NCBI GenBank assembly: GCA_963766475.1
Contig: CAVXZS010000003.1
Coordinates: forward strand, 169,778-233,777
DNA length: 64,000 nucleotides
Source of the DNA: an uncultured Actinomycetota bacterium
Lineage (GTDB): Bacteria > Actinomycetota > Actinomycetes > Propionibacteriales > Nocardioidaceae
Direction: 5' to 3'
Position 1 is the stretch's first letter; each line of letters begins with the position of its first letter. Below are positions 2,408 to 48,593 of the stretch, in pieces. The notes below the pieces were generated by a model. That model ran no database searches. It was given only the letters and a program-made list of their open reading frames with translations, and was not told the origin of the DNA. A program made the translations under genes and the position numbers.

Positions 2408-3022
2408 GTGGCGAGCCAGGCAGCGGTGACGCGCGTCCCGCAGGAGGAGCGGACCCGCGCGATGCGGGCACGGCTGCTGGAGGCGACCGTCGAGCTGCTC
2501 GTCGAGAAGGGGTACGCCGGCACGTCGACCACGCTGGTCAGCGAGCGGGCCGGGGTGAGCCGGGGCGCCCAGCTGCACCACTTCCCGACCAAGCAGGACC
2601 TCGTGGTCGCCGCCGTCCAGCACGTCACCGAGGTCCGGGGAGCCGAGCTCGCGGCGGCGGCGGAGAACCTCCCGACCGGGCCGAAGCGGACCCGCGCGGT
2701 GCTGCAGGTGCTCGGCGACCACTTCACCTCGCCGGTGTTCACCGCCGCGCTCGAGCTCTGGGTCGCCGCCCGCACCGACCCGGACCTCCTGGCGGAGGTC
2801 ACGCCGCTGGAGCTGAAGGTGGGTCGCGAGACGCACCGGATGACCCTCGACCTCCTCGGTGCCGACGAGTCGCAGCCGGGGGTCCGCGAGCTCGTGCAAG
2901 CCACGCTCGACCTGGTCCGCGGGCTGGGGCTGGCCAACACGATCAGCGACGACCGGCGGCGCCGTACCCGCATCCTCGACCAGTGGGCGCAGACGCTCGA
3001 TGACTGCCTGGAGCGCCGGTGA
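2408..3022 (+). CDS. TetR/AcrR family regulator
   Basis: HTH segment VSERAGVSRGAQLHHFPTK. Confidence 0.92.
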   Translation: MASQAAVTRVPQEERTRAMRARLLEATVELLVEKGYAGTSTTLVSERAGVSRGAQLHHFPTKQDLVVAAVQHVTEVRGAELAAAAENLPTGPKRTRAVLQVLGDHFTSPVFTAALELWVAARTDPDLLAEVTPLELKVGRETHRMTLDLLGADESQPGVRELVQATLDLVRGLGLANTISDDRRRRTRILDQWAQTLDDCLERR

Positions 3023-3828
3023 GCGACCTCCTTCAGGGACTTCTCGACGACCTCGAGGCCGAGGGCGACGACCTGCGCACGACGATCGAGCGGATGGGCC
3101 CGAGTGGCTGGACCGCGCAGACACCCGCCGCCGGGTGGACCGTGGCCACCCAGGTCGCGCACCTGCTCTGGACCGACGAGGTCGCCGTGCTGGCCGCGCG
3201 GTCGCACGAGTCGCCCGAGGCCAAGCAGGCCTGGGACGACGTCGTGCTGGCCGCGATCGACGACCCGATGGGCTACGTCGACAAGGGCGCGTCCGCGATC
3301 GCCGGGCTGCCCCGCGACCAGGTGCTCGGCCGATGGGCCGCCAGCCGTGGAGGACTCCGCCAGGCCCTGACCGCGCTGCCGGCGGGGCAGAAGATGCCGT
3401 GGTTCGGCCCGCCCATGTCGGCGGCGTCGATGGCGACCGCCCGGTTCATGGAGACCTGGGCGCACGCGCTCGACGTCTACGACGCGGCCGGCGAGCGCCC
3501 CGGTCCGACCGACCGGATCCGGCACGTGGCGCACCTCGGCGTGCGCACCCGCGACTTCGCCTACTCCGTGCACAGGGAGGACCCACCGGCCGAGGAGTTC
3601 CGGGTGCAGCTCGCCGCGCCGAGCGGCGAGCTCTGGACGTGGGGTCCCGAGGACGCCGCGCAGAGCGTCCGCGGTCCGGCGTACGACTTCTGCCTGCTCG
3701 TCACCCAGCGGGTCAACCGGGCCGACACCGACCTGGTGGCGACGGGTGCCGACGCCGAGCGCTGGCTCACGATCGCGCAGGCCTTCGCCGGCCCGCCCGG
3801 TGAGGGAAGGGAGCCTCTCGATGGTTGA
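3019..3828 (+). CDS. TIGR03084-like / mycothiol-dependent maleylpyruvate isomerase N-terminal family metal-binding protein
   Basis: TPAAGWTVATQVAHL and ARFMETWAH motifs; GTGA overlap with tetR. Confidence 0.8.
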   Translation: MSDLLQGLLDDLEAEGDDLRTTIERMGPSGWTAQTPAAGWTVATQVAHLLWTDEVAVLAARSHESPEAKQAWDDVVLAAIDDPMGYVDKGASAIAGLPRDQVLGRWAASRGGLRQALTALPAGQKMPWFGPPMSAASMATARFMETWAHALDVYDAAGERPGPTDRIRHVAHLGVRTRDFAYSVHREDPPAEEFRVQLAAPSGELWTWGPEDAAQSVRGPAYDFCLLVTQRVNRADTDLVATGADAERWLTIAQAFAGPPGEGREPLDG

Positions 3829-3954
3829 GGAGCTCGCGCCAGCGAGCGTCTCGAAACCTCGCAAGCCGGGGCTGGGACGCAACGACGGCTGTGATCGGGT
3901 CCCAGCCCGCCCGTCAGGGGTTTCGAGACAGGCGCTCGCGCGCCTTCCTCAACC
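3823..3954. repeat. Inverted pair of family-A REP-like hairpins
   Basis: GGTTGAGGAG-ctcgc gcca gcgag-CGTCTCGAAACC at 3823-3858; inverted copy at 3919-3954. Confidence 0.9.
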
Positions 3955-3966
3955 AGCGGTGGCGGC

Positions 3967-5700
3967 ATGAGCGACGTGCTGCGGGTCGGCAACTGCTCCG
4001 GCTTCTACGGCGACCGGCTGTCCGCGATGCGCGAGCAGCTGGAGGGTCGCCAGGAAGATGGGCAGAGCCTGGATGTGCTCACCGGCGACTACCTCGCCGA
4101 GCTCACCATGCTGATCCTCGGCAAGGACACGATGAAGGACCCCTCGCTCGGCTACGCGCGCACCTTCGTGCGCCAGCTCGAGGACTGCCTCGGCCTGGCG
4201 CTCGAGCGGGGCGTCCGGATCGTCAGCAACGCGGGTGGCCTCAACCCGGCCGGCCTCGCCGAGCGCATCCGCGAGGTCGCGAAGGGGCTCGGTCTCGACG
4301 TCAACGTCGCGCACGTCGAGGGCGACGACCTCCGGCCGCTCGGCCTGTACGACGGAGCGCTGACCGCCAACGCCTACCTCGGCGGCTTCGGGATCGCGGC
4401 GGCGCTGACGGCCGGCGCCGACGTGGTCGTCACCGGCCGGGTCACCGACGCCTCGGTCGTGGTCGGGCCGGCCGTCGCGCACCACGGCTGGACGCCGACG
4501 GCGTACGACGAGCTGGCCGGTGCGGTGGTCGCAGGGCACGTGATCGAGTGCGGAGCGCAAGCGACGGGCGGCAACTTCTCCGGCTTCCGCCAGCTGGTCA
4601 GGGACGGCATGGATCCCGCGAAGCCGCTGGGCTTCCCGGTCGCCGAGATCGCCGCCGACGGATCCAGCGTGATCACCAAGCACGCCGGCACCGGCGGCGC
4701 GGTCACGGTCGACACGGTGACCGCGCAGCTGGTCTACGAGATCCAGACGACCCGCTATCTCAACCCCGACGTGACCACGCACCTCGACTCGATCCGGCTC
4801 GAGCAGGAGGGACCGGACCGGGTCGCGGTCTCCGGGGTGCGTGGCGAGGCTCCGCCGGAGCGGCTCAAGGTCTCCGTCAACGAGCTCGGCGGCTTCCGCA
4901 ACCAGGTCGAGTTCGTGCTCACGGGTCTCGACGTCGAGGAGAAGGCGGAGTGGGTGCGCGCGCAGCTGACGCCGTCGCTGACCGCGAAGGACGTCACCTG
5001 GTCGCGCGTCGCCCCACCGCCCCAGGACGCCGACACCGAGGAGGCGGCGTCCACGCTGCTCCGCTGCACGGTGATGGACCCCGAGCCCGGCCCGGTCGGC
5101 CGCGCGTTCACCGCCCCCGCGGTCGAGCTGGCGCTCGCGTCGTACCCCGGGTTCACGATGACCACCCCGCCGCAGCAGCCGACCCCCTACGGCGTCTTCC
5201 GGCCGGCGTACGTCGACCGCGCGCAGGTGCACCACACGGTGGTGCACGCCGACGGCCGTCGTGAGGAGATCGGCGACCCCACCGAGTTCTCGACGCCCGA
5301 CCCCGACGCGGGGCGGCGACCCTCGCCGTACCCCGCTCCGGCCGACTCCGTCAACCGCCGGCTGCCGCTGGGCACCTTCGTGCACGCGCGCTCCGGCGAC
5401 AAGGGCGGCGACGCCAACATCGGCCTCTGGGTCGCCAACGACGGCGACCCCCGCCGGGAGGCGCGGGTCACCTGGCTGGCCAAGGTGATGAGCGCGCGCC
5501 GGGTCCGCGAGCTGGTCCCGGAGGCCCACGAGCTCGAGGTCGACGTCTACGTGCTCCCCAACCTCGGTGGCGTCAACGTCGTGGTCCACGGCCTGCTCGG
5601 CCGGGGCGTGGCCGCGTCGAGCCGGTTCGACCCGCAGGCCAAGGGTCTCGGTGAGTGGCTGCGGTCTCGGTTCGTGCACATCCAGGAGAACCTCATATGA
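3967..5700 (+). CDS. Acyclic terpene utilization AtuA-family protein
   Basis: GNCSGFYGDR, DYLAELT and ARSGDKGGDAN motifs. Confidence 0.9.
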   Translation: MSDVLRVGNCSGFYGDRLSAMREQLEGRQEDGQSLDVLTGDYLAELTMLILGKDTMKDPSLGYARTFVRQLEDCLGLALERGVRIVSNAGGLNPAGLAERIREVAKGLGLDVNVAHVEGDDLRPLGLYDGALTANAYLGGFGIAAALTAGADVVVTGRVTDASVVVGPAVAHHGWTPTAYDELAGAVVAGHVIECGAQATGGNFSGFRQLVRDGMDPAKPLGFPVAEIAADGSSVITKHAGTGGAVTVDTVTAQLVYEIQTTRYLNPDVTTHLDSIRLEQEGPDRVAVSGVRGEAPPERLKVSVNELGGFRNQVEFVLTGLDVEEKAEWVRAQLTPSLTAKDVTWSRVAPPPQDADTEEAASTLLRCTVMDPEPGPVGRAFTAPAVELALASYPGFTMTTPPQQPTPYGVFRPAYVDRAQVHHTVVHADGRREEIGDPTEFSTPDPDAGRRPSPYPAPADSVNRRLPLGTFVHARSGDKGGDANIGLWVANDGDPRREARVTWLAKVMSARRVRELVPEAHELEVDVYVLPNLGGVNVVVHGLLGRGVAASSRFDPQAKGLGEWLRSRFVHIQENLI

Positions 5701-5710
5701 ACACCCCGCT

Positions 5711-5818
5711 GGTTGAGGAGCTTGCGCAGCAAGCGTCTCGAAACCACCGCAGGGAAGGCACCTGTCCCAGCCCCGTCTCGCCAGGTTTCGAGACGGGCGC
5801 AGAGCGCCCTCCTCAACC
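5711..5818. repeat. Inverted pair of family-A hairpins
   Basis: Copies at 5711-5745 (+) and 5784-5818 (-). Confidence 0.9.
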
Positions 5819-5838
5819 AGCGAACGCGGAGGGTTGTC

Positions 5839-6972
5839 GTGAGTGACGTGCGTGCACTCGGGGCCGAGTTCGTGCGCCGCGAGGTGGCGCCGTACCTCCA
5901 GGAGTGGGAGGACGCCGGCACCGTTCCCCGCGAGCTGCACCGGGCCGCGGGCAAGCAGGGCCTGCTCGGCGTCGCGTTCCCCGAGGAGGTCGGTGGCGGC
6001 GGCGGGACGCTGATGGACTCGGTGGACCTGCAGGAGGCGATGTTCGCCGAGGGTGCGTCCAGCGGGCTGATGGCGGCGCTGTTCACCGGCGGCATCGCCC
6101 TTCCGCACATCGTGGCGTCCGCCAGGGACGGGCAGAGCGCCGATCTCGTCGACAGGTTCGTCCGGCCGACCCTGGCCGGCGAGACCATCGGCTCGCTCGC
6201 GGTCACCGAGCCCGGCGGCGGATCCGACGTGGCCGCCCTCCGGACCACGGCGGTCCGGGACGGCGGCCACTACGTCGTCAACGGCGCCAAGACCTTCATC
6301 ACCAGTGGCGTCCGCGCCGACTTCGTCACCACCGCGGTCCGCACCGGGGGTCCCGGCCACGCGGGCGTCTCGCTGCTGGTCGTCGAGGCCGGCACCCCCG
6401 GCTTCAGCGTCGACCGGTCGCTGCGCAAGATGGGCTGGCACTGCTCCGACACCGCCGAGCTGTCGTACGTCGACGTGCGGGTGCCGGTCTCGAACCTGGT
6501 CGGCGAGGAGGACACCGGCTTCTACCAGATCGCCGAGCAGTTCGTGGTCGAGCGGATCGGGCTCGCGGTGCACGCCTACGGCATCGCCGCGCGATCGCTC
6601 GAGCTGACGGCGGCGTACTGCCGCGACCGCGAGACGTTCGGGAAGCCCCTGATCGCCCGCCAGGTGGTGCGGCACACGCTGGTCGAGATGCGCCGGCAGG
6701 TCGAGGTGGCGCGGACCTACGCGCGCGAGGTCGCCCGCCGCCACGTCGACGGGGAGGACGTGATCGCCGAGGCGTGCCTGGCCAAGCAGACCGCCTGCGA
6801 GGCGGCGACGTATGTCTGCGACCAGGCGGTGCAGCTGCACGGCGGCACCGGCTACATGCACGGGACCGAGGTGGAGCGGCACTACCGCGACGCCCGGATC
6901 CTGCCCATCGGAGGAGGAGCCACCGAGGTGCTGACCGATCTCGCCGCCCGACTGCTCGGGTACGCGTCGTGA
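5839..6972 (+). CDS. Acyl-CoA dehydrogenase (FadE13-like); start GTG 5839 (or 5697 if a +1 error lies in the repeat)
   Basis: AVTEPGGGSD, NGAKTFITSG, QLHGGTGY and IGGGATE motifs; GGAGG upstream of 5839. Confidence 0.9.
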   Translation: MSDVRALGAEFVRREVAPYLQEWEDAGTVPRELHRAAGKQGLLGVAFPEEVGGGGGTLMDSVDLQEAMFAEGASSGLMAALFTGGIALPHIVASARDGQSADLVDRFVRPTLAGETIGSLAVTEPGGGSDVAALRTTAVRDGGHYVVNGAKTFITSGVRADFVTTAVRTGGPGHAGVSLLVVEAGTPGFSVDRSLRKMGWHCSDTAELSYVDVRVPVSNLVGEEDTGFYQIAEQFVVERIGLAVHAYGIAARSLELTAAYCRDRETFGKPLIARQVVRHTLVEMRRQVEVARTYAREVARRHVDGEDVIAEACLAKQTACEAATYVCDQAVQLHGGTGYMHGTEVERHYRDARILPIGGGATEVLTDLAARLLGYAS

Positions 6973-7454
6973 ACCCGTTCAGGCCGCCGGGCGGTGAGGT
7001 GTCGCTGCACATGGATGCGCCACCCGAGAAGGTGTGGGCCCTGGTCAGCGACATCACGCGGATCGGGGAGTTCTCGCCGGAGACGTTCGAGGCGCGGTGG
7101 ACGCGGGGCTCGACCGGCCCCGAGGTGGGCGCGTCGTTCAAGGGGCACGTGAAGCGCAACGGCGTCGGACCGACGTACTGGTCGCCCTGCCAGGTGACGA
7201 AGTGCGTGCCCCACGAGGTGTTCGAGTTCGGCGTCGGCACCGACGACGTCACGGTCAACACCTGGGGCTACCGGTTGGCCCCCGACGGCGGCGGCACCAT
7301 GGTCACCGAGTACTTCCGCCTCTCGACCGCGCTGCCGTTCCGCCTCTACTGGGCACTCCTGGGCCAGCTCCGCGGCCGCACCAACGAGAAGGGCATGCGC
7401 ACCACGCTCGAGCGGATGAAGGACGTCGTGGAGAAGGAGGCGGACGGTGGTTGA
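6969..7454 (+). CDS. SRPBCC/polyketide cyclase-like protein
   Basis: APPEKVWALVSDITRIGEFSPE; GTGA overlap; stop codon lies inside a repeat. Confidence 0.85.
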   Translation: MNPFRPPGGEVSLHMDAPPEKVWALVSDITRIGEFSPETFEARWTRGSTGPEVGASFKGHVKRNGVGPTYWSPCQVTKCVPHEVFEFGVGTDDVTVNTWGYRLAPDGGGTMVTEYFRLSTALPFRLYWALLGQLRGRTNEKGMRTTLERMKDVVEKEADGG

Positions 7455-7549
7455 GGAAGGCGCTCTGCGCCTGTCTCGAAACCTCCGCAGCGACGGCTGG
7501 GCCCCGGCTCACGTGGTTTCGAGACGGTCGCTGCGCGACCTCCTCAACC
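7449..7549. repeat. Inverted pair of family-A hairpins
   Basis: Copies at 7449-7483 (+) and 7515-7549 (-). Confidence 0.9.
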
Positions 7550-7565
7550 GGCGTGGGGGGTGCCG

Positions 7566-9140
7566 ATGACCACCGCGAACCGCGAGGCGATGCTCGAGAA
7601 GCTCGGCGACCTCGAGGCCGAGCACGCCAAGGCCGTCGCGGGCGGTGGCGCCAAGTACGTCGACCGGCACCACGACCGCGGCAAGCTGATGCCACGCGAG
7701 CGCATCGAGCTCCTCGTCGACGAGGGGTCGGCGTTCCTCGAGCTCTCGCCGCTGGCCGGCTGGGGATCGGACTTCGCCGTCGGCGCGAGCGTGGTCACCG
7801 GCATCGGCGTCATCGAGGGCGTCGAGTGCCTGATCACCGCCAACGACCCGTCGGTGAAGGGCGGCGCCAGCAACCCGTGGACGGTGAAGAAGATCTTCCG
7901 GGCCAGCCAGATCGCCGAGGAGAACGGGCTGCCGACGGTCGCGCTGGTCGAGTCGGGTGGTGCCGACCTGCCGACCCAGAAGGAGATCTTCATCCCGGGC
8001 GGCAAGCTGTTCCGCGACATCACCCGCTCCTCCGCGGCCAAGCAGCCGACCGTCGCCCTGGTGTTCGGCAACTCGACCGCGGGCGGTGCCTACGTGCCGG
8101 GGATGTCGGACTACACGGTGATGGTCAAGGGGCAGGCCAAGGTGTTCCTCGGCGGACCGCCGCTGGTGAAGATGGCCACCGGCGAGGAGTCCGACGACGA
8201 GTCGCTGGGCGGCGCGGAGATGCACGCCCGGACCTCCGGTCTCGCCGACTACCTCGCCGAGGACGAGCGCGACGCGATCCGGATCGGCCGGCGCATCGTC
8301 GCCCGGCTCAACTGGCGCAAGGCATATCCCGCGCCGAGCTCATGGGCCGAGCCCGACGCCGACACCGACGAGCTCCTCGACCTGATCCCGTCCGACCTCA
8401 AGGAGCCGTTCGACCCGCGCGAGGTGATCGCCCGCATCTGTGACGGCGTCTCGACCACGAACGGCGTGGCCTTCGACGAGTTCAAGCCGCTCTACGGCTC
8501 GTCGCTGGTCACCGGCTGGGCCAAGCTGCACGGCCGGCCGATCGGCATCCTCGCCAACGCGCAGGGCGTGCTGTTCAGCGAGGAGGCGCAGAAGGCGACC
8601 CAGTTCATCCAGCTCGCCAACCAGGTCGACACCCCGCTGCTCTTCCTCCACAACACGACGGGCTACATGGTCGGCAAGGACTACGAGCAGGGCGGCATCA
8701 TCAAGCACGGCGCGATGATGATCAACGCGGTCTCCAACAGCCGGGTGCCGCACCTGAGCGTGATCATGGGTGCGTCCTACGGCGCCGGCAACTACGGCAT
8801 GAACGGCCGCGCGTTCGACCCCCGCTTCCTCTTCACGTGGCCCTCGGCCAAGTCGGCCGTGATGGGCCCGGCCCAGCTGGCCGGCGTGCTCGAGATCGTC
8901 GCGAAGCAGTCTGCCGAGTCGAAGGGCGAGGTCTTCGACACCGAGGGGTTCAAGGGCATCAAGGAGGTCGTCGAGGCGCAGATCGAGGAGCAGTCGCTGC
9001 CGTTCTTCCTCTCCGGGATGCTCTACGACGACGGCGTGATCGACCCCCGCGACACCCGCACCGTCCTCGGCATCTGTCTCTCGGTGATCGAGAACCGGCC
9101 GTACGCCGGCACCGACCGGTTCGGGGTGTTCCGGCCATGA
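7566..9140 (+). CDS. Acyl-CoA carboxylase carboxyltransferase (beta) subunit, AccD2/MccB-like
   Basis: RGKLMPRERI, STAGGAYVP, GASYGAGNYGM and DDGVIDPRDTR motifs. Confidence 0.93.
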   Translation: MTTANREAMLEKLGDLEAEHAKAVAGGGAKYVDRHHDRGKLMPRERIELLVDEGSAFLELSPLAGWGSDFAVGASVVTGIGVIEGVECLITANDPSVKGGASNPWTVKKIFRASQIAEENGLPTVALVESGGADLPTQKEIFIPGGKLFRDITRSSAAKQPTVALVFGNSTAGGAYVPGMSDYTVMVKGQAKVFLGGPPLVKMATGEESDDESLGGAEMHARTSGLADYLAEDERDAIRIGRRIVARLNWRKAYPAPSSWAEPDADTDELLDLIPSDLKEPFDPREVIARICDGVSTTNGVAFDEFKPLYGSSLVTGWAKLHGRPIGILANAQGVLFSEEAQKATQFIQLANQVDTPLLFLHNTTGYMVGKDYEQGGIIKHGAMMINAVSNSRVPHLSVIMGASYGAGNYGMNGRAFDPRFLFTWPSAKSAVMGPAQLAGVLEIVAKQSAESKGEVFDTEGFKGIKEVVEAQIEEQSLPFFLSGMLYDDGVIDPRDTRTVLGICLSVIENRPYAGTDRFGVFRP

Positions 9141-9155
9141 TCAAGCGAGCAGCGA

Positions 9156-9320
9156 CGCGCGAGGGACGAGCGCGGCGCGCGGGCGAGACGGGGTTGAGCG
9201 TGCCCTGCGACCGAGGAACGAGGTCGCAACGGGCTGAGCGAAACCACCGCAACCCGGGCGGGGACCCAGCCACGGCTTGCGAGGTTTCGAGACGCGCGCA
9301 GAGCGCGCTCCTCAACCACC
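9156..9320. repeat. Composite hairpin insert: nested GAG...CGA hairpins plus a family-A copy
   Basis: CGCGC-GAG GGA CGA-GCGCG (9156-9174); GGTT-GAG...CGA-AACC (9192-9245) with inner TGCGACC-GAG GAA CGA-GGTCGCA; family A at 9283-9317 (-). Confidence 0.8.
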
Positions 9321-9330
9321 GGAGCTCGCG

Positions 9331-11231
<1,901 letters not shown>

Positions 11232-11235
<4 letters not shown>

Positions 11236-12395
11236 GCAACAACTTCAGCGAGACCGAGGAGCGCCAGGCGCTGCGCCGGGAGGTGGCGAAGCTGGCGGGC
11301 AAGTACGGTCGCGAGTGGTTCACCGAGAAGGCGCGCTCGGGTGAGAAGACGACCGAGCTGTGGCTGGAGATCGGGAAGAACGGCTACCTCGGCATCAACA
11401 TCCCCGAGGAGTACGGCGGCGGAGGCGGCGGCATCGGCGACATCGCCGCGGTCTGCGAGGAGCTCGCGGCCCAGGGCTGCCCGCTGCTGCTCATGGTGGT
11501 CAGCCCGGCGATCTGCGGCACCATCATCAGCCGCTACGGCACCGAGGAGCAGAAGCAGCGCTGGCTGCCGGGCATCTGCGACGGCACGTCGACGATGGCG
11601 TTCGCGATCACCGAGCCCGACGCCGGCACCAACACGCACAACATCACCACCACCGCCCGCCGGGACGGCGACGAGTGGGTGCTCAACGGCCGCAAGATCT
11701 ACATCTCCGGTGTCGACGAGGCCGACAACGTGCTCGTGGTGGCGCGCGCCGAGGACGCGAAGACAGGGAAGGTGAAGCCGGTGCTGTTCGTGGTGCCGAC
11801 GGACGCGTCCGGCTTCGAGGCGAAGCCGATCCCCATGGAGATCGTCAGCCCCGAGCTCCAGTTCACGGTGTTCATCGACGACGTCCGGCTCTCGAACGAC
11901 GCGCTGGTCGGCGATGAGGACGGCGGCCTCGTGCAGCTGTTCGCCGGGCTCAACCCCGAGCGGATCATGGCGGCGTCGTTCTCGACCGGGCTGGCGCGGT
12001 TCGCGCTGGACCGCGCGGCGTCGTACGCGAAGGAGCGCGTGGTGTTCAAGGACGCCATCGGCTCCCACCAGGCCATCGCGCACCCGCTCGCCCAGAGCCA
12101 CATCGAGATCGAGCTGGCGCGGCTGATGACGCAGAAGGCCGCCGCGCTCTACGACGCCGGCGACGACCTGGGTGCCGGCGAGGCCGCCAACATGGCGAAG
12201 TACGCCGCCGCCGAGGCCGCCTGCGACGCCGCCGACCGCGCGGTCCAGACCCACGGCGGCAACGGGATCACCCAGGAGTACGGCATGGCCGGTCTGCTGG
12301 TCGCCACCCGCGCCGGCCGGATCGCCCCGGTCAGCCGGGAGATGATCCTCAACTTCGTCGCGATGCACTCCCTGGGACTGCCCAAGTCCTACTGA
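11232..12395 (+). CDS. Acyl-CoA dehydrogenase (FadE12-like)
   Basis: AITEPDAGTN and QTHGGNG motifs; GTGA overlap. Confidence 0.92.
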
Positions 12396-14815: not shown

Positions 14816-16072
14816 CTACGTGCGTCTGGTGAAGCCGTACTTGCCGGTGGGCAGCTTGGTCATGGTGTAGGTCTGGTCGTGGGCTCGGGTGTGGTGGGGT
14901 GGGCAGATCATGACCAGGTCGGTGCGGTTGGTCTGACCGCCGTCGACCCAGCGGGTGAGGTGGTGCAGGTGGGTCATGCCGGGTGGGGTGTCGCAGCCTT
15001 CGATCTCGCAGCCACCGGCTTCGATGATCTTGGTGATCCGCTGGGCTTCGGTGGCGAGGCGTTTCTTGCGGCCGAGGTCGAGGACCTGGGAGGCGCCGTC
15101 GAGGACGGCGGGGATGATGCCGGCCTCGCAGGCGAGCAGGCGGGCGGCGCTGGGGGAGATGGTCTCGCCGGTGTCGAGGTGGGCGGCTTGGAGGTCGCCC
15201 AGGAGGGTGTCGAGCTGCATGAGGACCACGACGGTGGCGTTGAGGCCTCCTGCTTTGGGGAGCCGTGTGGTGGGGTAGCGGCGGATCAGGTCGACGAACG
15301 CTTGCCCGAGCCGCTCGGCGGTGGGGCGGCGTTCGCCGAGGGACCCCCTGGTGACTCCTTTGCTGGCTTGGTGTTTGGGTGCGGCGATGGCCCAGAGGGC
15401 TTTCTTGAGCATCGCGCCGGTCACGGTCGCGTCGATGGTGAACCGGCCGTGGAGTCGGCCGTGTCCGTCGTCGTAGACGGTGAGCCGGGTCGCGGCGGCG
15501 GCGGCGCGTTCCTCGCGGTCGAGCAGGGTGGCTTGGTGGGCGTCTGCGGCGTCGGGGGCGGCGACGTGCAGGACGTGGCGGCCGAGCTGGCGCAGTGCTT
15601 TGGCGTCGAACGAACCGGCCTGGTCGAGGAGGTGTCGTTCGGCCTGCTCGGCCACGGCGGGGTCGAGGTCGGTGGGGAGCTCGTCGAGGGCGCGGAGGAT
15701 GGTCTCGGCCTGCTCGACGTGGATCCGGCCGGCGGCGAGGGCGGTGCGGGTCAGGTGCCGGGTCTCCAGACCGGTGGCGAGCCGCATGGCCCGGTGCGCG
15801 GTGGCCCGGGTGGTGCGGGTGGTCACGGCGTGCCAGTTCGCGGTCGAGGTGGCACCGGAATGGGCGGGCAGCTCGATCCGGTCGGCGTGGGCCAGGAGTC
15901 TGGCTTCGAGCTCGGCGAGCTGGGCCCTCGCGGCCTGGACCTCGGCGAGGGCGGTGGTGGTCTGGGCCGGGGACATCGACCAGACCGGCGTACCGGTCAC
16001 CGCGCCCAGGTGTGCGCGCACCTCAGCGACCGCCCGGGTCACCGGGTGGGGCTCGTGCGCGAGGGCTGTCAT
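14816..16072 (-). CDS. DUF222 (13E12-repeat family) protein with C-terminal HNH endonuclease
   Basis: ARLLACEAGIIPAVLDG..VLDLGRKKR; CEIEGC..HLHH..W.DGG.T..ICPPHH; ATG at 16072. Confidence 0.88.
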   Translation of the reverse strand: MTALAHEPHPVTRAVAEVRAHLGAVTGTPVWSMSPAQTTTALAEVQAARAQLAELEARLLAHADRIELPAHSGATSTANWHAVTTRTTRATAHRAMRLATGLETRHLTRTALAAGRIHVEQAETILRALDELPTDLDPAVAEQAERHLLDQAGSFDAKALRQLGRHVLHVAAPDAADAHQATLLDREERAAAAATRLTVYDDGHGRLHGRFTIDATVTGAMLKKALWAIAAPKHQASKGVTRGSLGERRPTAERLGQAFVDLIRRYPTTRLPKAGGLNATVVVLMQLDTLLGDLQAAHLDTGETISPSAARLLACEAGIIPAVLDGASQVLDLGRKKRLATEAQRITKIIEAGGCEIEGCDTPPGMTHLHHLTRWVDGGQTNRTDLVMICPPHHTRAHDQTYTMTKLPTGKYGFTRRT

Positions 16073-16124
16073 GGCACCCAGTCCAGCACCAGCCACCGGC
16101 GCCCGCAGCAGGGCGGAATCCGGG

Positions 16125-16172
16125 TGTGGACAACGGGTTCCTACCCGCTGGTTGTGCACGGGAAGTGGACAG
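16125..16172. promoter_or_regulatory. DnaA-box-like cluster
   Basis: TGTGGACAA (16125-16133) is the reverse complement of TTGTCCACA; two-mismatch boxes at 16152-16160 and 16164-16172. Confidence 0.45.
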
Positions 16173-16200
16173 CCGGGCGGCGGCGGGCGGCGGCGGGCGC

Positions 16201-16806
16201 GGGTCCCAGGGCGGGCTGCGGTGATCTCGACAGGCTCGATCGGCGGTGGGCGGGTCCCAGCGCGGGCTGCGGGGGTTTCGAGACGGTCGCTGCGCGACCT
16301 CCTCAACCACCGGCGGGGCCGGTATGGCGACGGTGGCTGGTCACCAGCGTGGGCTGCGGTGATCTCGACAGGCTCGATCGGCGGTGGGCGGGTCCCCAGG
16401 GGTGGGCTGCGGGGGTTTCGAGACGGTCGCTGCGCGACCTCCTCAACCACCGGCGGGGCCGGTATGGCGACGGTGGCTGGTCCCGGCCGGGCTGCGGTGA
16501 TCTCGACAGGCTCGATCGGCGGTGGGCGGGTCCCAGGGCGGGCTGCGGGGGTTTCGAGACGGTCGCTGCGCGACCTCCTCAACCACCGGCGGGGCCGGTA
16601 TGGCGACGGTGGGCGGGTCCCGGCGGGCTGCGGTGATCTCGACAGGCTCGATCGGCGGTGGGCGGGTCCCAGCCCGGGCAGCGGAGGTTTCGAGACGGTC
16701 GCTGCGCGACCTCCTCAACCACCGGCGGGGCCGGTATGGCGACGGTGGCTGGTCCCGAGCGTGGGCTGCGGTGATCTCGACAGGCTCGATCGGCGGTGGG
16801 CGGGTC
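16201..16806. repeat. Tandem array, about 138-bp period, alternating family-B (5 copies) and family-A (4 copies) hairpins
   Basis: GATCTCGACAGGCTCGATC at 16223, 16361, 16499, 16635 and 16773, interleaved with GGTTTCGAGACGGTCGCTGCGCGACCTCCTCAACC. Confidence 0.95.
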
Positions 16807-16874
16807 TGGCATGTGGCTGTCGCCAGCGCTGCGCGACCGCCCCCGGTGCCCACCGGCGTGAGAGTGTGGGGGTG

Positions 16875-20938: not shown

Positions 20939-23900
20939 CTATGGGATCTCGATCGGCCCGGCGATGACGCTGTTGGCGATGTTGCCGGTCTGGTCGGTCT
21001 GGGTGGCTCGGGCGTAGAGGGTGCCGGTGGTGCCGAGGACGGCCGAGGTCACGCTCCAGGCGCCGGTCGCGGCGTTGACCACGACCCCGGTGAGGGTGGC
21101 CCTCGTGTTGGGTGCAGAGCACGGAAACACGTTCGTCGTGCACAACACGACCGTGAGGGTCAGGTTGTCGCCGAGGCCGTAGCTGGCGACCCCGCTGACG
21201 GTGGCGGTCTGGCCGGGGTCCGCGCCGAAGCCCGTGATCGAGACCTCGGGTGCGATGTTGTCGGTGTAGGTGACGGTTCGGTCGGTGTAGGTCGCGGTAC
21301 TGCTGAGGTTGCCTGCCATGTCCTTGGCTGCGCCGGAGGCCAGCGCGGGGATGACCGTCCCGGACTTCGTCATGCCCGAGACGGCCACGTTGTAGGGTCC
21401 GCTGCCGCTGATGGCGAACGCCGTCGCGCCCGCCGTGCCGGTGAGGGTCAGGGTGCTGCCCGTGAACGCGTAGACCGGGGAGCTGAACGTCACGGTGTAG
21501 TCGATGCTCGTACCGGTCGTCGGGTCGACCTGGCCCGCAGCCTGGTTCAGCGTCACGGTCGGGGCGATCGTGTCGATGATCATCGACAGCGGCGCGGACG
21601 CTGCGCTGGCGTTGAGGCTCTGGTCGGTCGCAGTCGCAGTGATGGCATAGGTGTTGCTGGTCAACGCAGTCACCGTGGTGGCCGAGTAGAGGCCGGAGAC
21701 GGGCACCACGGCGGAGGTCGCGATGACGGTCGCGCCGTTGTAGATGCGGACCGTCGACCCGACCTCGGCCGTGCCCGTGAAGGCAGGCTTCGTGTTGTTG
21801 GTGATGGCGTCGCTCGAGGAGAACCCGGTGTCGGTGGCCGCTGTCACGACCGGTGTCGACGGCGAGCTGGGGGCCACGACGTCGCTGTAGGTGACGGTTG
21901 CATCGGTCGACGTCGCAGCCGCGTTGTTGTTGCCGGCGGCGTCGGTGACCTTGGCCGTGGTCAGCAGGGCCGTCACGGTGCCCGACTTGACCATCCCGGA
22001 GACCGAGATGTCGTAGGGCCCGGTGCCGTTGACCGCTGCGGTGTTGGCCAGGGCGGTTCCGGAGTAGGTGAGGTCGGAGCCGGTGAACCCGTAGATCGGT
22101 TCGCTGAACGCCGCTGTGTAGGCGATGGGCGAGGTCGTGGTCGGGTCCACCTGGTCGGGGGCCTGGTTGATGGTCGCCGTGGGCAGGACCAGGTCGACGA
22201 CGATGGCGGTGGCCTCGGAGAACACGCTGAGGTTGCCGGCGACGTCGGTGGCCTGGGCGGTGATGGAGTAGGTGCCGGTCGCGAGGGTCGAGGTGGCACC
22301 GGAGTAGGTTCCGGCTCCGGTGGTCGTGGACCCCGGGCTGGTCCCGGTCGCAGTCGCGCCGTTGAAGAGGCGGACGTAGGCATTCGGCTCCGCGGTGCCG
22401 GCGAAGATCGGCGCTGTCGACCTGGTGATCCGGTCGGTGCTGGAGATCCCGGTGTCGCTCGCGAGGGTCATCGTGGGGATCGACGGTGCTGCGGGTGCAG
22501 TGTTGTCGATGGTGAAGGTCAGGGTCGCTGAGGACGGGCCCACGTTGCCGGCCACGTCGGTGGGGATGGTCGAGACGGTGTGGCTCCCGGCTGCCAGGAG
22601 GCTGGGGATGACCGCGTAGGTGGTGGTCGTGGTGGTCACGGTGCCCAGCTGGGTGCCTGCCTCGAACAGGGCCACGATGGCCTTCGAGTCGTTGGTTCCG
22701 CTGACGGTCGGGGTCGTCTTGTTCGTGATCTTGTCGGTCGTCAACCTGCCGGTGTCCATGCCGCTGGCCAGAACCGGGGTCGAGGTGGCCGGCGGGGCGG
22801 TCGTGTCCACGACGAGGGAGATCGCGGTCGAGGAGGAGCTGATGTTGCCGGCCGCGTCGGTCGCCCTCGCGGTGATGGCGTGCGTCGCATCGGCCAGGGC
22901 GCCGGGAGTGATCGACCATGCCGTCGAGGGCGCGTAGACGGTGCCGAGGAGGGTGGCCGGGTTCGTGCCGATGGTCGAGTACAGGGTGACCGTGCTCCCC
23001 GCCGTCACGGTGCCGTTGATGGTCGGGGTGTTGTCGCTGGTGTTGTTGTCGGTGGCCGACCGGCCGGAGTCGCTGGTGGCGATGAGGTCCGGGGTACCTG
23101 GCGCGCTCGGAGCGGTCAGGTCGATGACGACCGAGACCGCCGGGGAGGACGCGCTGATGTTGCCGGCCGCGTCGGTCGCCGTGGTGGTGACCGACTTGGT
23201 TCCGGCGATCAGGACGATCGAGGTGACGGTGTAGGACCCGCCGGTCGCCTGGGCGGTTCCGATGGCCGTGGTCGCGGAGTACAGGGTGACCGTCGACCCG
23301 ATCTCCGCGGAGCCGGTGAAGGTGGGGGTGGTGTCGTTGGTGACCCTGTCGCTCGAGGAGATGCCGGTGTCGCTGGCGGGGTCGAGCACTGGCGCGGCCT
23401 GGACGGGCGGGGCGGTGGTGTCGATGACGACAGTGGTGGCGGTCGAGGCGGGTCCGGTGTTCGCGGCCAGGTCGGTGGCCCGGGTGGTGAACGCGTGGGT
23501 GCCGGCGGGGCGGGTGCTCGCGGTGATCGTGTAGGTCCCTCCGGCCGCGACGCCAGATCCGACTGGGGTGACCCCGTCGAAGAGTGCGACCGTCGAACCA
23601 CTCTCGGCGGTGCCGGTGAACGTCGGCGCGGTGACCTTGGTGATGCCGTCCGTCGTGGAGGAGCCGGAGTCGCTGGCCGTGACCAGGACGGGGGCAGATG
23701 GAGCGTCAGGTGCAGCCAGGTCGATACGGACGACGACCGACTGCGTCTCGCTGACGTTGCCCGGGTTGTCCCGGGCCGAGAACGTGACGCTGTGGATGCC
23801 GTCGCCCTCCACGAGCACCTGCGCGGTGTCCGTCATCACCGTGACCGGGGTGCCGCCGTCCACGGCATAGGTGATCGAGGCGATGCCGAAACCGGCCGAG

Positions 23901-40354: not shown

Positions 40355-40605
40355 CCGCCCATCGAGCCTGTCGAGATGTCCGCAGCCCGCGCTGGGAGGT
40401 GAGTCCCAGCGCGGGCTGCGGAGGTTTCGAGACGGTTGCTGCGCAACCTCCTCAACCACCGGTGGCGGTGCCGCAAGCACCGGTGGTCGAGCTTTCGAGA
40501 CGTTGCTGCGCAACCTCCTCAACCACCGGTGGCGGTCGCCGCAAGCACCGGTGGTTGAGGAGGGCGCTCTGCGCCCGTCTCGAAACCTCGCAAGCCGAGG
40601 CTGGG
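40355..40605. repeat. Mosaic of one family-B and three family-A hairpins
   Basis: ATCGAGCCTGTCGAGAT at 40361; family-A copies near 40423 (-), 40493 (-, degenerate) and 40553 (+). Confidence 0.88.
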
Positions 40606-48045: not shown

Positions 48046-48552
48046 AGCGCTCGCCAACCCCGGTGGTTGTGAGGAGGGCGCTCTGCGCCCGTCTCGAAAC
48101 CTGGTGACCCGGGCTGGTACCAGCGCACGCTCAGAGGTTTCGAGACGCTTGCTGCGCAAGCTCCTCAACCACCGGTGGTCGAGGACCGCGCTCGGCATCC
48201 ACCGGGCTTGTCGAGGACGGCGCCGACCCCGGTGGTTGAGGAGGGCGCTCGGCAACCACCGGAGGTCGAGGACCGCGCTCGGCAATCTCCACCGGAGGTC
48301 GAGGACGCGCGGCGTGGTCGGCGTCCACCGGGCTGGTCGAGGACGGCGCTCGCCCACCCCGGTGGTTGAGGAGGGCGCTCTGCGCCCGTCTCGAAACCTG
48401 GTGACCGCGGGCTGGTGCCAGCGCACGCTCAGAGGTTTCGAGACGCTTGCTGCGCAAGCTCCTCAACCACCGGTGGTCGAGGACCGCGCTCGCCCACCAC
48501 CGGTGGTCGAGCGCTGGCTGCGGAGGTCTCGGCAGGCTCGACCGGCGGTGGG
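48046..48552. repeat. BIME-like mosaic: duplicated family-A pair, short ~30-bp units and one family-B copy
   Basis: ~150-bp block repeated about 298 bp apart; CCACCGG(T/A)GGTCGAGGAC units. Confidence 0.9.
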
Positions 48553-48593
48553 CGGCTCCGAGCCTTCCCGACGGCCGCATCTAGGCTTCGGCC

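Follow-up and report, generated by a model that had tools for sequence, protein, structure and literature searches.

Hairpin repeat inserts in a Nocardioidaceae operon are spanned by relay mini-ORFs that probably let ribosomes continue from gene to gene

The window analysed here is a stretch of 64,000 nucleotides (contig CAVXZS010000003.1, positions 169,778 to 233,777) from an uncultured soil member of the Nocardioidaceae, whose genome comprises 4.9 Mb with 72% GC and is 86% complete. It contains an eight-gene acyl-CoA carboxylase cluster on a single strand, from a TetR regulator through a second acyl-CoA dehydrogenase, where three junctions are plain GTGA overlaps (3019, 6969 and 11232) and four are widened to 111-190 nt, stop to start, by repeat DNA forming hairpins. 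Most hairpin inserts in this operon and its relatives are spanned by an open mini-ORF (small open reading frame), probably because selection keeps only those inserts that let ribosomes continue. The best reading would be that these relays reflect a selective filter for ribosome continuity rather than a property of one particular element. As far as sequence comparison can tell the relays are real and selected, and from them we infer translation.

A sequence-only reading of the window had described four stop-free mini-ORFs at the hairpin-bearing junctions and plain GTGA overlaps at the other three, and a check of the coordinates found all of them with the ends given there (Table 1). Only the mini-ORF at 9137 carries ATGA at both ends, the same seven letters being present at both overlaps of this fourth junction. 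Those at 3821 and 7447 are entered by an 8-nt overlap (RTGGTTGA), in which the stop of the upstream gene is the repeat arm's own TGA and the relay starts at an ATG or GTG five bases ahead of it. A GGAGG run (5828-5832) precedes the downstream start GTG5839, and GGAG is found at 9321-9324, within the fourth mini-ORF. Insert 1 was identified with equal length and an open frame in the two closest relatives (G383 and G149), both of which lack insert 2 (5706-5823) at its junction; the layout of the third mini-ORF in G383 is identical but 3 nt shorter.

The evidence that carries the finding comes from relatives of this operon, retrieved from 140 other genomes (120 of them the best of 371 AtuA hits) with gene ends anchored by tblastn. 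Removal of the loci with frameshifted genes (15 of 141) left 824 junctions in 126 loci; junctions with alignments ending more than 25 residues short and inserts that contained N or reached 400 nt were also removed. The coupled stop-start overlap is the ancestral state of these junctions, because 611 of the 656 repeat-free orthologous junctions overlap, 552 of them at -4. A strict relay was defined as an ATG or GTG start with overlaps of -1, -4 or -8 at both ends, and the null was a phase shift in which 1 or 2 bases are added inside the insert, so that both ends are kept and only the phase is altered. Outside the window there were 99 inserts between 60 and 399 nt long, and 66 of these were strict relays, against 2 and 6 after the two shifts. 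With one insert per sequence cluster and the window's own clusters excluded the count was 37 of 62, against 0 and 4 (p = 4e-17), stable over four definitions and three shift points, TTG starts included. Relay or in-frame extension of a neighbouring gene accounts for 49 of these 62 distinct inserts (32 and 6 when shifted), and the exact -4 exit is present in 29 (0 and 0 when shifted). Thirty-four inserts carry RTGA at both ends: 31 in relay phase, one in frame and two broken. The 31, chosen by geometry alone, have no stop inside the relay frame, whereas their other two frames hold 22 and 16 (p = 2e-7).

The relay inserts of the relatives are 67-283 nt long and fall into 16 sequence groups, with the arm of the window's own genome in only 7 of 41. 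Relays are present in 67 loci, which form 59 separate clades on a quick two-protein tree of 123 leaves without support values. The pattern cannot have arisen in a single event or a handful of them. Length differences between related inserts are mostly multiples of three. Two clusters hold relay and in-frame-extension forms one base apart (88/89 and 76/77 nt), and these pairs suggest a route between the two states.

The second comparison was made within the window's own genome, on the 55 junctions of 11-300 nt that carry a repeat between co-directional, well-scoring genes, called by a self-trained codon model, hence with some wrong starts. Strict relays were identified in 13 of the 55, against 2 and 3 after shifts of one and two bases (p = 5.7e-4), and, once the four discovery junctions are set aside, in 9 of 51 against 1 and 3 (p = 0.009). 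In arms that end a gene, ATG replaces GTG at -8 more often than elsewhere (2 of 14 against 1 of 234, p = 0.009), which hints weakly at improvement of the relay start there. The energy needed to open the start region in the relatives' inserts was 19.1 kcal/mol at relays (n = 41) and 12.5 kcal/mol at unbridged ones (n = 13; p = 0.0016); start regions that are more open at unbridged inserts are as expected if the downstream gene initiates alone there. Mean start-region pairing showed no clear difference between the four insert junctions and the three insert-free ones of the window, in naked folds with 170 nt of upstream RNA.

Several results weigh against this reading or narrow it. Once TTG starts are admitted, the own-genome relay counts become 14, 10 and 4 (unshifted and shifted), and with loose windows in addition 20, 17 and 11; this test depends on the allowed starts because the arm itself supplies GTG at -8 and TTG at -4, so that part of the relay entry comes with the repeat. 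Strict continuity is lacking at 35 of the 55 own-genome junctions, many of which look like separate transcription units. Random repeat loci from other genomes gave 3 relays in 18, against 0 and 0, and any continuity in 4, against 4 and 1, which is not significant (of 80 loci drawn, 17 were dropped as short, containing N or without an arm, 32 could not be resolved, 8 lay in frame in genes and 5 outside 10-300 nt, leaving the 18). Thirteen of the 62 distinct operon inserts have no strict bridge, two of them having two-step chains and one a looser exit. Shine-Dalgarno strength, scored with what we take to be the anti-Shine-Dalgarno motif, is alike in relay and unbridged inserts (median -7.3 and -8.0 kcal/mol, p = 0.78), hence some independent initiation is possible. 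Finally, the strong test covers one operon in kin genomes and its p-values overstate independence. The earlier proposal that inserts persist in coupled operons only when ribosomes are relayed through them thus stood in its frame and orthologue comparisons (37 of 62 against 0 and 4) and went too far in the word "only", with 13 of 62 unbridged and in-frame extension permitted as well.

An unlikely alternative is that the frame was selected for ribosome cover of the RNA, against Rho-dependent polarity or nuclease cleavage, and not for hand-over to the next start. Any open frame across the insert would shield the RNA, the downstream starts retain their Shine-Dalgarno runs, and dimers of repetitive extragenic palindromic (REP) sequences have been discussed as RNase-sensitive hairpins (PMC3733652; this and the other papers are cited here for excerpts of their text). 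Such cover needs no stop exactly on the downstream start, yet this is what the -4 exits show, and 31 of the 33 RTGA-ended inserts outside the in-frame phase are in relay rather than broken phase. Shielding from polarity or decay may contribute alongside coupling, but it leaves the exact -4 exit unexplained.

Less probable again is a by-product of insertion, of the type known from the interspersed repetitive units of mycobacteria (MIRUs) reportedly described by Supply et al. in 1997, in which the element would bring a ready-made frame and duplicate an NTGA target without later selection. The starts supplied by the arm over its own TGA and the seven letters repeated at the fourth junction would fit such an origin, as would the 4-nt direct repeats of MIRU sites (PMC3184786). 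However, the relay inserts have no fixed length or family, the same arms occupy non-bridged, convergent and intragenic sites, and later indels keep the frame too. The first bases of the two RTGA are identical in 14 of 31 inserts (45%), against 50% in mismatched pairs, a comparison in which old duplications may have decayed, so that such a mechanism may have played some part.

Chance is a very improbable source of the pattern: it would call on the scarcity of stops in GC-rich DNA, the many RTGA starts, the starts supplied by the repeat and perhaps an indel error at 5697. The weakening of the own-genome enrichment with TTG and loose windows agrees with this, and 17 of the 31 RTGA-ended inserts are open in each of the other frames as well. 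The phase-shift null keeps all of these features, yet it gives 0 and 4 where 37 were counted; interior stops number 0 in the relay frame, and insert 1 is in frame in three genomes. Regarding 5697, where the sequence-only reading had itself suspected a sequencing error, the orthologous junctions place the homologous downstream start at GTG5839, with relay 2 ending over it at -8. An indel between 5697 and 5846 appears unlikely, because no frameshift was found in the eight operon genes, -8 overlaps are ordinary (48 of 2935 co-directional pairs in the own genome, 19 of 656 orthologous junctions) and a relative's locus (L158) has the same -4/-8 layout at this junction with a different repeat. Among public sequencing runs the best share 0.31 and 0.29 of words, and none of the 32 contig pieces shown bridges 5697-5846; three RNA-type runs share 0.05-0.06. 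The public contigs gave short perfect pieces, one error-free over 3600-3858, with a depth over repeats that is inflated by other copies.

That the mini-ORFs are kept for their peptides, as functional microproteins or regulatory stalling peptides, can be set aside almost entirely: insert 1 is open in three species, as this would have it, but none of the four relay peptides matches Pfam, substitutions are blind to codon position, and relays of the relatives at one junction encode unrelated peptides, with the same arm read in differing frames. In insert 1, as compared with G383 and G149, substitutions fall 3/3/4 and 5/3/4 over the three positions of the codon; of the 22 codons changed, 15 are non-synonymous, the adjacent end of the carboxyltransferase being almost unchanged. 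Frame and openness are thus kept while the peptide sequence is free, judging by these position-blind substitutions, the lack of a Pfam match and the reading of one arm in different frames. The earlier suggestion that junk peptides are made agrees with the one comparable shared peptide (insert 1), which shows no protein-level constraint; the passage of ribosomes, on which that suggestion also leans, we infer.

The preferred reading, a filter for ribosome continuity, can be set out as a series of steps. Junctions without inserts are overlaps of -4, -1 or -8, and repeats of many unrelated sequences and lengths have entered them many times. A doublet is predicted from RNA folds to form a long stem ending 7-15 nt before the downstream start. 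A ribosome finishing the upstream gene would restart at the overlapping ATG or GTG by the known process of termination-reinitiation (PMC12548453, PMC4633059), melt the stem while making a junk peptide, stop at the TGA overlapping the downstream start and restart there, probably aided by a Shine-Dalgarno-like run. Judging from the counts, continuity would be kept in two of the three phases (relay, or a neighbour extended in frame); the third would be purged, except where the downstream start is sufficiently open for solo initiation. Relay prevails over extension among long inserts, probably as the N terminus of the enzyme stays clean. Stops arising in the relay frame are removed, the peptide sequence being unconstrained.

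It is an even question whether ribosome continuity acts as a general sieve on hairpin repeats of any family at bacterial operon stop-start overlaps, with repeats colonizing such overlaps only in the two phases that let ribosomes pass and single-base indels flipping extension into relay and back. If such a sieve exists, coupling in repeat-rich genomes would be paid for with dozens of unannotated junk peptides, and every insert would serve as a natural experiment on how far a downstream gene relies on re-initiation across strong structure. What was proposed for a single mycobacterial repeat becomes a rule that can be counted against a clean null, and the counts give evolutionary evidence of a benefit in conserving translational coupling in these operons. 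The inserts also offer test cases for the open question of whether coupling acts by RNA unfolding or by re-initiation (PMC12548453). For annotation they carry a warning, in that a small ORF lying across a repeat may be translated and yet encode nothing of use, and they show a route by which repeat DNA is translated first and fused to proteins later.

The bridging idea is already published for mycobacterial MIRUs, which insert at start codons and contain an ORF coupled at -4 that eases insertion (PMC12548453). They are described as units of 40-100 bp without obvious palindrome, in direct tandem repeats (PMC5056196), although imperfect inverted repeats are noted as well, with tetranucleotide direct repeats at filled sites (PMC3184786). 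As in these excerpts on MIRUs, the repeats described here stand at operon junctions with a small co-directional ORF that overlaps both neighbours and is proposed to keep coupling. They differ in spanning 111-190 nt in the window and 67-283 nt in relatives, in being long-stem doublets (z -3.7 to -5.3), in using -8 overlaps besides -4, and in having the frame set site by site in at least 16 sequence groups, whereas in MIRUs the ORF belongs to the element. Both ends are RTGA, with identical first bases in no excess over the null, and old sites may have drifted. By the MIRU descriptions, the inserts work like MIRUs but are set apart by size and palindrome features; the differences lie in the hairpins, the variable length and the absence of a detectable target duplication.

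REP, REPIN and BIME repeats, of the GTAG and CGTC superfamilies (PMC3733652), form inverted dimers whose arms, set apart by a spacer of 20-100 bp, fold into a single stem. The arms described here are likewise short palindromes in high copy, mostly extragenic, paired as inverted doublets with spacers in that range and predicted to fold into one stem; their ends donate stop codons to neighbours and some copies are in frame within genes. As to a cognate RAYT/TnpA-REP, no Y1 HUH transposase (PF01797) was found in the own genome (86% complete) or in five relatives (86-100% complete), a search that divergent RAYTs could escape. The words Nocardioides and Actinobacteria are absent from the main text of that survey (PMC3733652), and its excerpts cited here mention no bridging ORFs. 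Small mycobacterial ORFs coupled by RTGA (Shell et al. 2015, PMC4633059) also end on the next start, with the linkage conserved and the peptide not; they are leaderless, 5' and coupled at one end, whereas the relays consist of repeat DNA, are internal and have coupling at both ends. As palindromic repeats translated in frame within proteins (PMC3733652, PMC3184786), Rickettsia palindromic elements resemble the intragenic arms described here, but they extend proteins, and in a relay the repeat is read between genes, in a frame of its own. No paper on bridging ORFs in REP-type inserts outside mycobacteria turned up in the limited part of the literature that was searched.

Table 1. Relay mini-ORFs, genes and repeats of the acyl-CoA carboxylase operon (window coordinates)
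Feature	Coordinates	Strand	Remarks
Relay mini-ORF 1, 49 aa	3821..3970	+	ATG to TGA; entry -8 (ATG), exit -4
Relay mini-ORF 2, 49 aa	5697..5846	+	Entry -4 (ancestral ATGA), exit -8; TGA 5844-5846 over GTG5839
Relay mini-ORF 3, 40 aa	7447..7569	+	Entry -8 (GTG), exit -4
Relay mini-ORF 4, 65 aa	9137..9334	+	ATGA at both ends (-4/-4)
TetR-family regulator	2408..3022	+	Pfam TetR_N; start from codon-model gene calling; GTGA overlap with next gene
TIGR03084 / MDMPI_N protein	3019..3828	+	Stop TGA 3826-3828 inside left repeat arm
AtuA-family protein	3967..5700	+	Pfam PF07287
Acyl-CoA dehydrogenase	5839..6972	+	GTGA overlap with next gene
SRPBCC / polyketide cyclase-like protein	6969..7454	+	Stop TGA 7452-7454 inside left repeat arm
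Acyl-CoA carboxylase carboxyltransferase subunit	7566..9140	+	Pfam PF01039
Biotin carboxylase / biotin carrier subunit	9331..11235	+	GTGA overlap with next gene
Second acyl-CoA dehydrogenase	11232..12395	+	
Inverted REP-like doublet 1	3818..3959		Arms 3818-3865 and 3914-3959; RNA fold -88.8 kcal/mol, z -5.3 vs shuffles
Inverted REP-like doublet 2	5706..5823		Arms 5706-5751 and 5778-5823; z -5.0 vs shuffles
Inverted REP-like doublet 3	7445..7553		Arms 7445-7490 and 7508-7553; z -3.7 vs shuffles
Composite insert 4	9192..9322		Long-hairpin variant left arm ~9192-9245 (read from sequence), standard right arm 9276-9322
Single repeat arm in frame inside biotin carboxylase	10246..10288	+	~15 extra residues

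A profile built from 261 regular-expression hits identified 333 arms of the repeat genome-wide, each scoring at least 18 bits and together forming 159 clusters. The clusters are located between co-directional genes (97), convergent genes (40) and divergent genes (10), inside called genes (10) and at contig edges (2). The arm is about 45 nt long with a small internal hairpin, and its consensus shows GGAG before and CGTC after this hairpin, with longer conserved flanks, where REP sequences have an unpaired terminal GTAG or CGTC tag. Exact matches to one arm variant, among the 80 listed, carry the titles Nocardioides, Marmoricola, Nocardioidaceae or unclassified actinobacteria, and none is titled Mycobacterium. 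A scan of the window with Rfam gave no match.

Arms are also found inside genes, with 10 such calls in the own genome (some perhaps wrong gene calls) and 8 of the 80 random loci elsewhere. Upstream genes on three contigs of the own genome (C16 near 179439, C2 near 56378 and C7 near 577343) read through an entire doublet, and in two cases the gene ends on the next start, at -4 or -1; these would be C-terminal extensions, an alternative way of keeping coupling. Bigger BIME-like mosaic clusters of the same arms stand between co-directional genes at 48060-48560 and 40416-40594 of the window. Further high-copy intergenic repeat families were identified in the own genome and were excluded from its phase test.

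A DUF222 gene with an HNH-like motif at its end, recognized by eye, occupies 14816-16582 of the minus strand, with a four-unit repeat array in front (16200-16810). Two copies of it at 96-97% protein identity are found on contig C11, and each is frame-broken and has repeat arms less than 200 nt away; an arm lies within 600 nt of 6% of random genes. The DUF222/HNH gene is a candidate for an element that mobilizes or targets the repeat.

Within the operon of some relatives other DNA was found. About 1.3 kb is wedged into the carboxyltransferase/biotin carboxylase junction of two loci, L090 (genome G333) and L050, beginning in L090 directly behind a truncated repeat arm. In several relatives (L003, L018, L022, L025 and others) the match to the carboxyltransferase is interrupted near residues 253-260, at a variable linker that may be especially prone to in-frame insertion. 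Elsewhere in the window, a minus-strand array of repeats of about 300 nt at 21700-23700 probably encodes a protein with tandem immunoglobulin-like domains.

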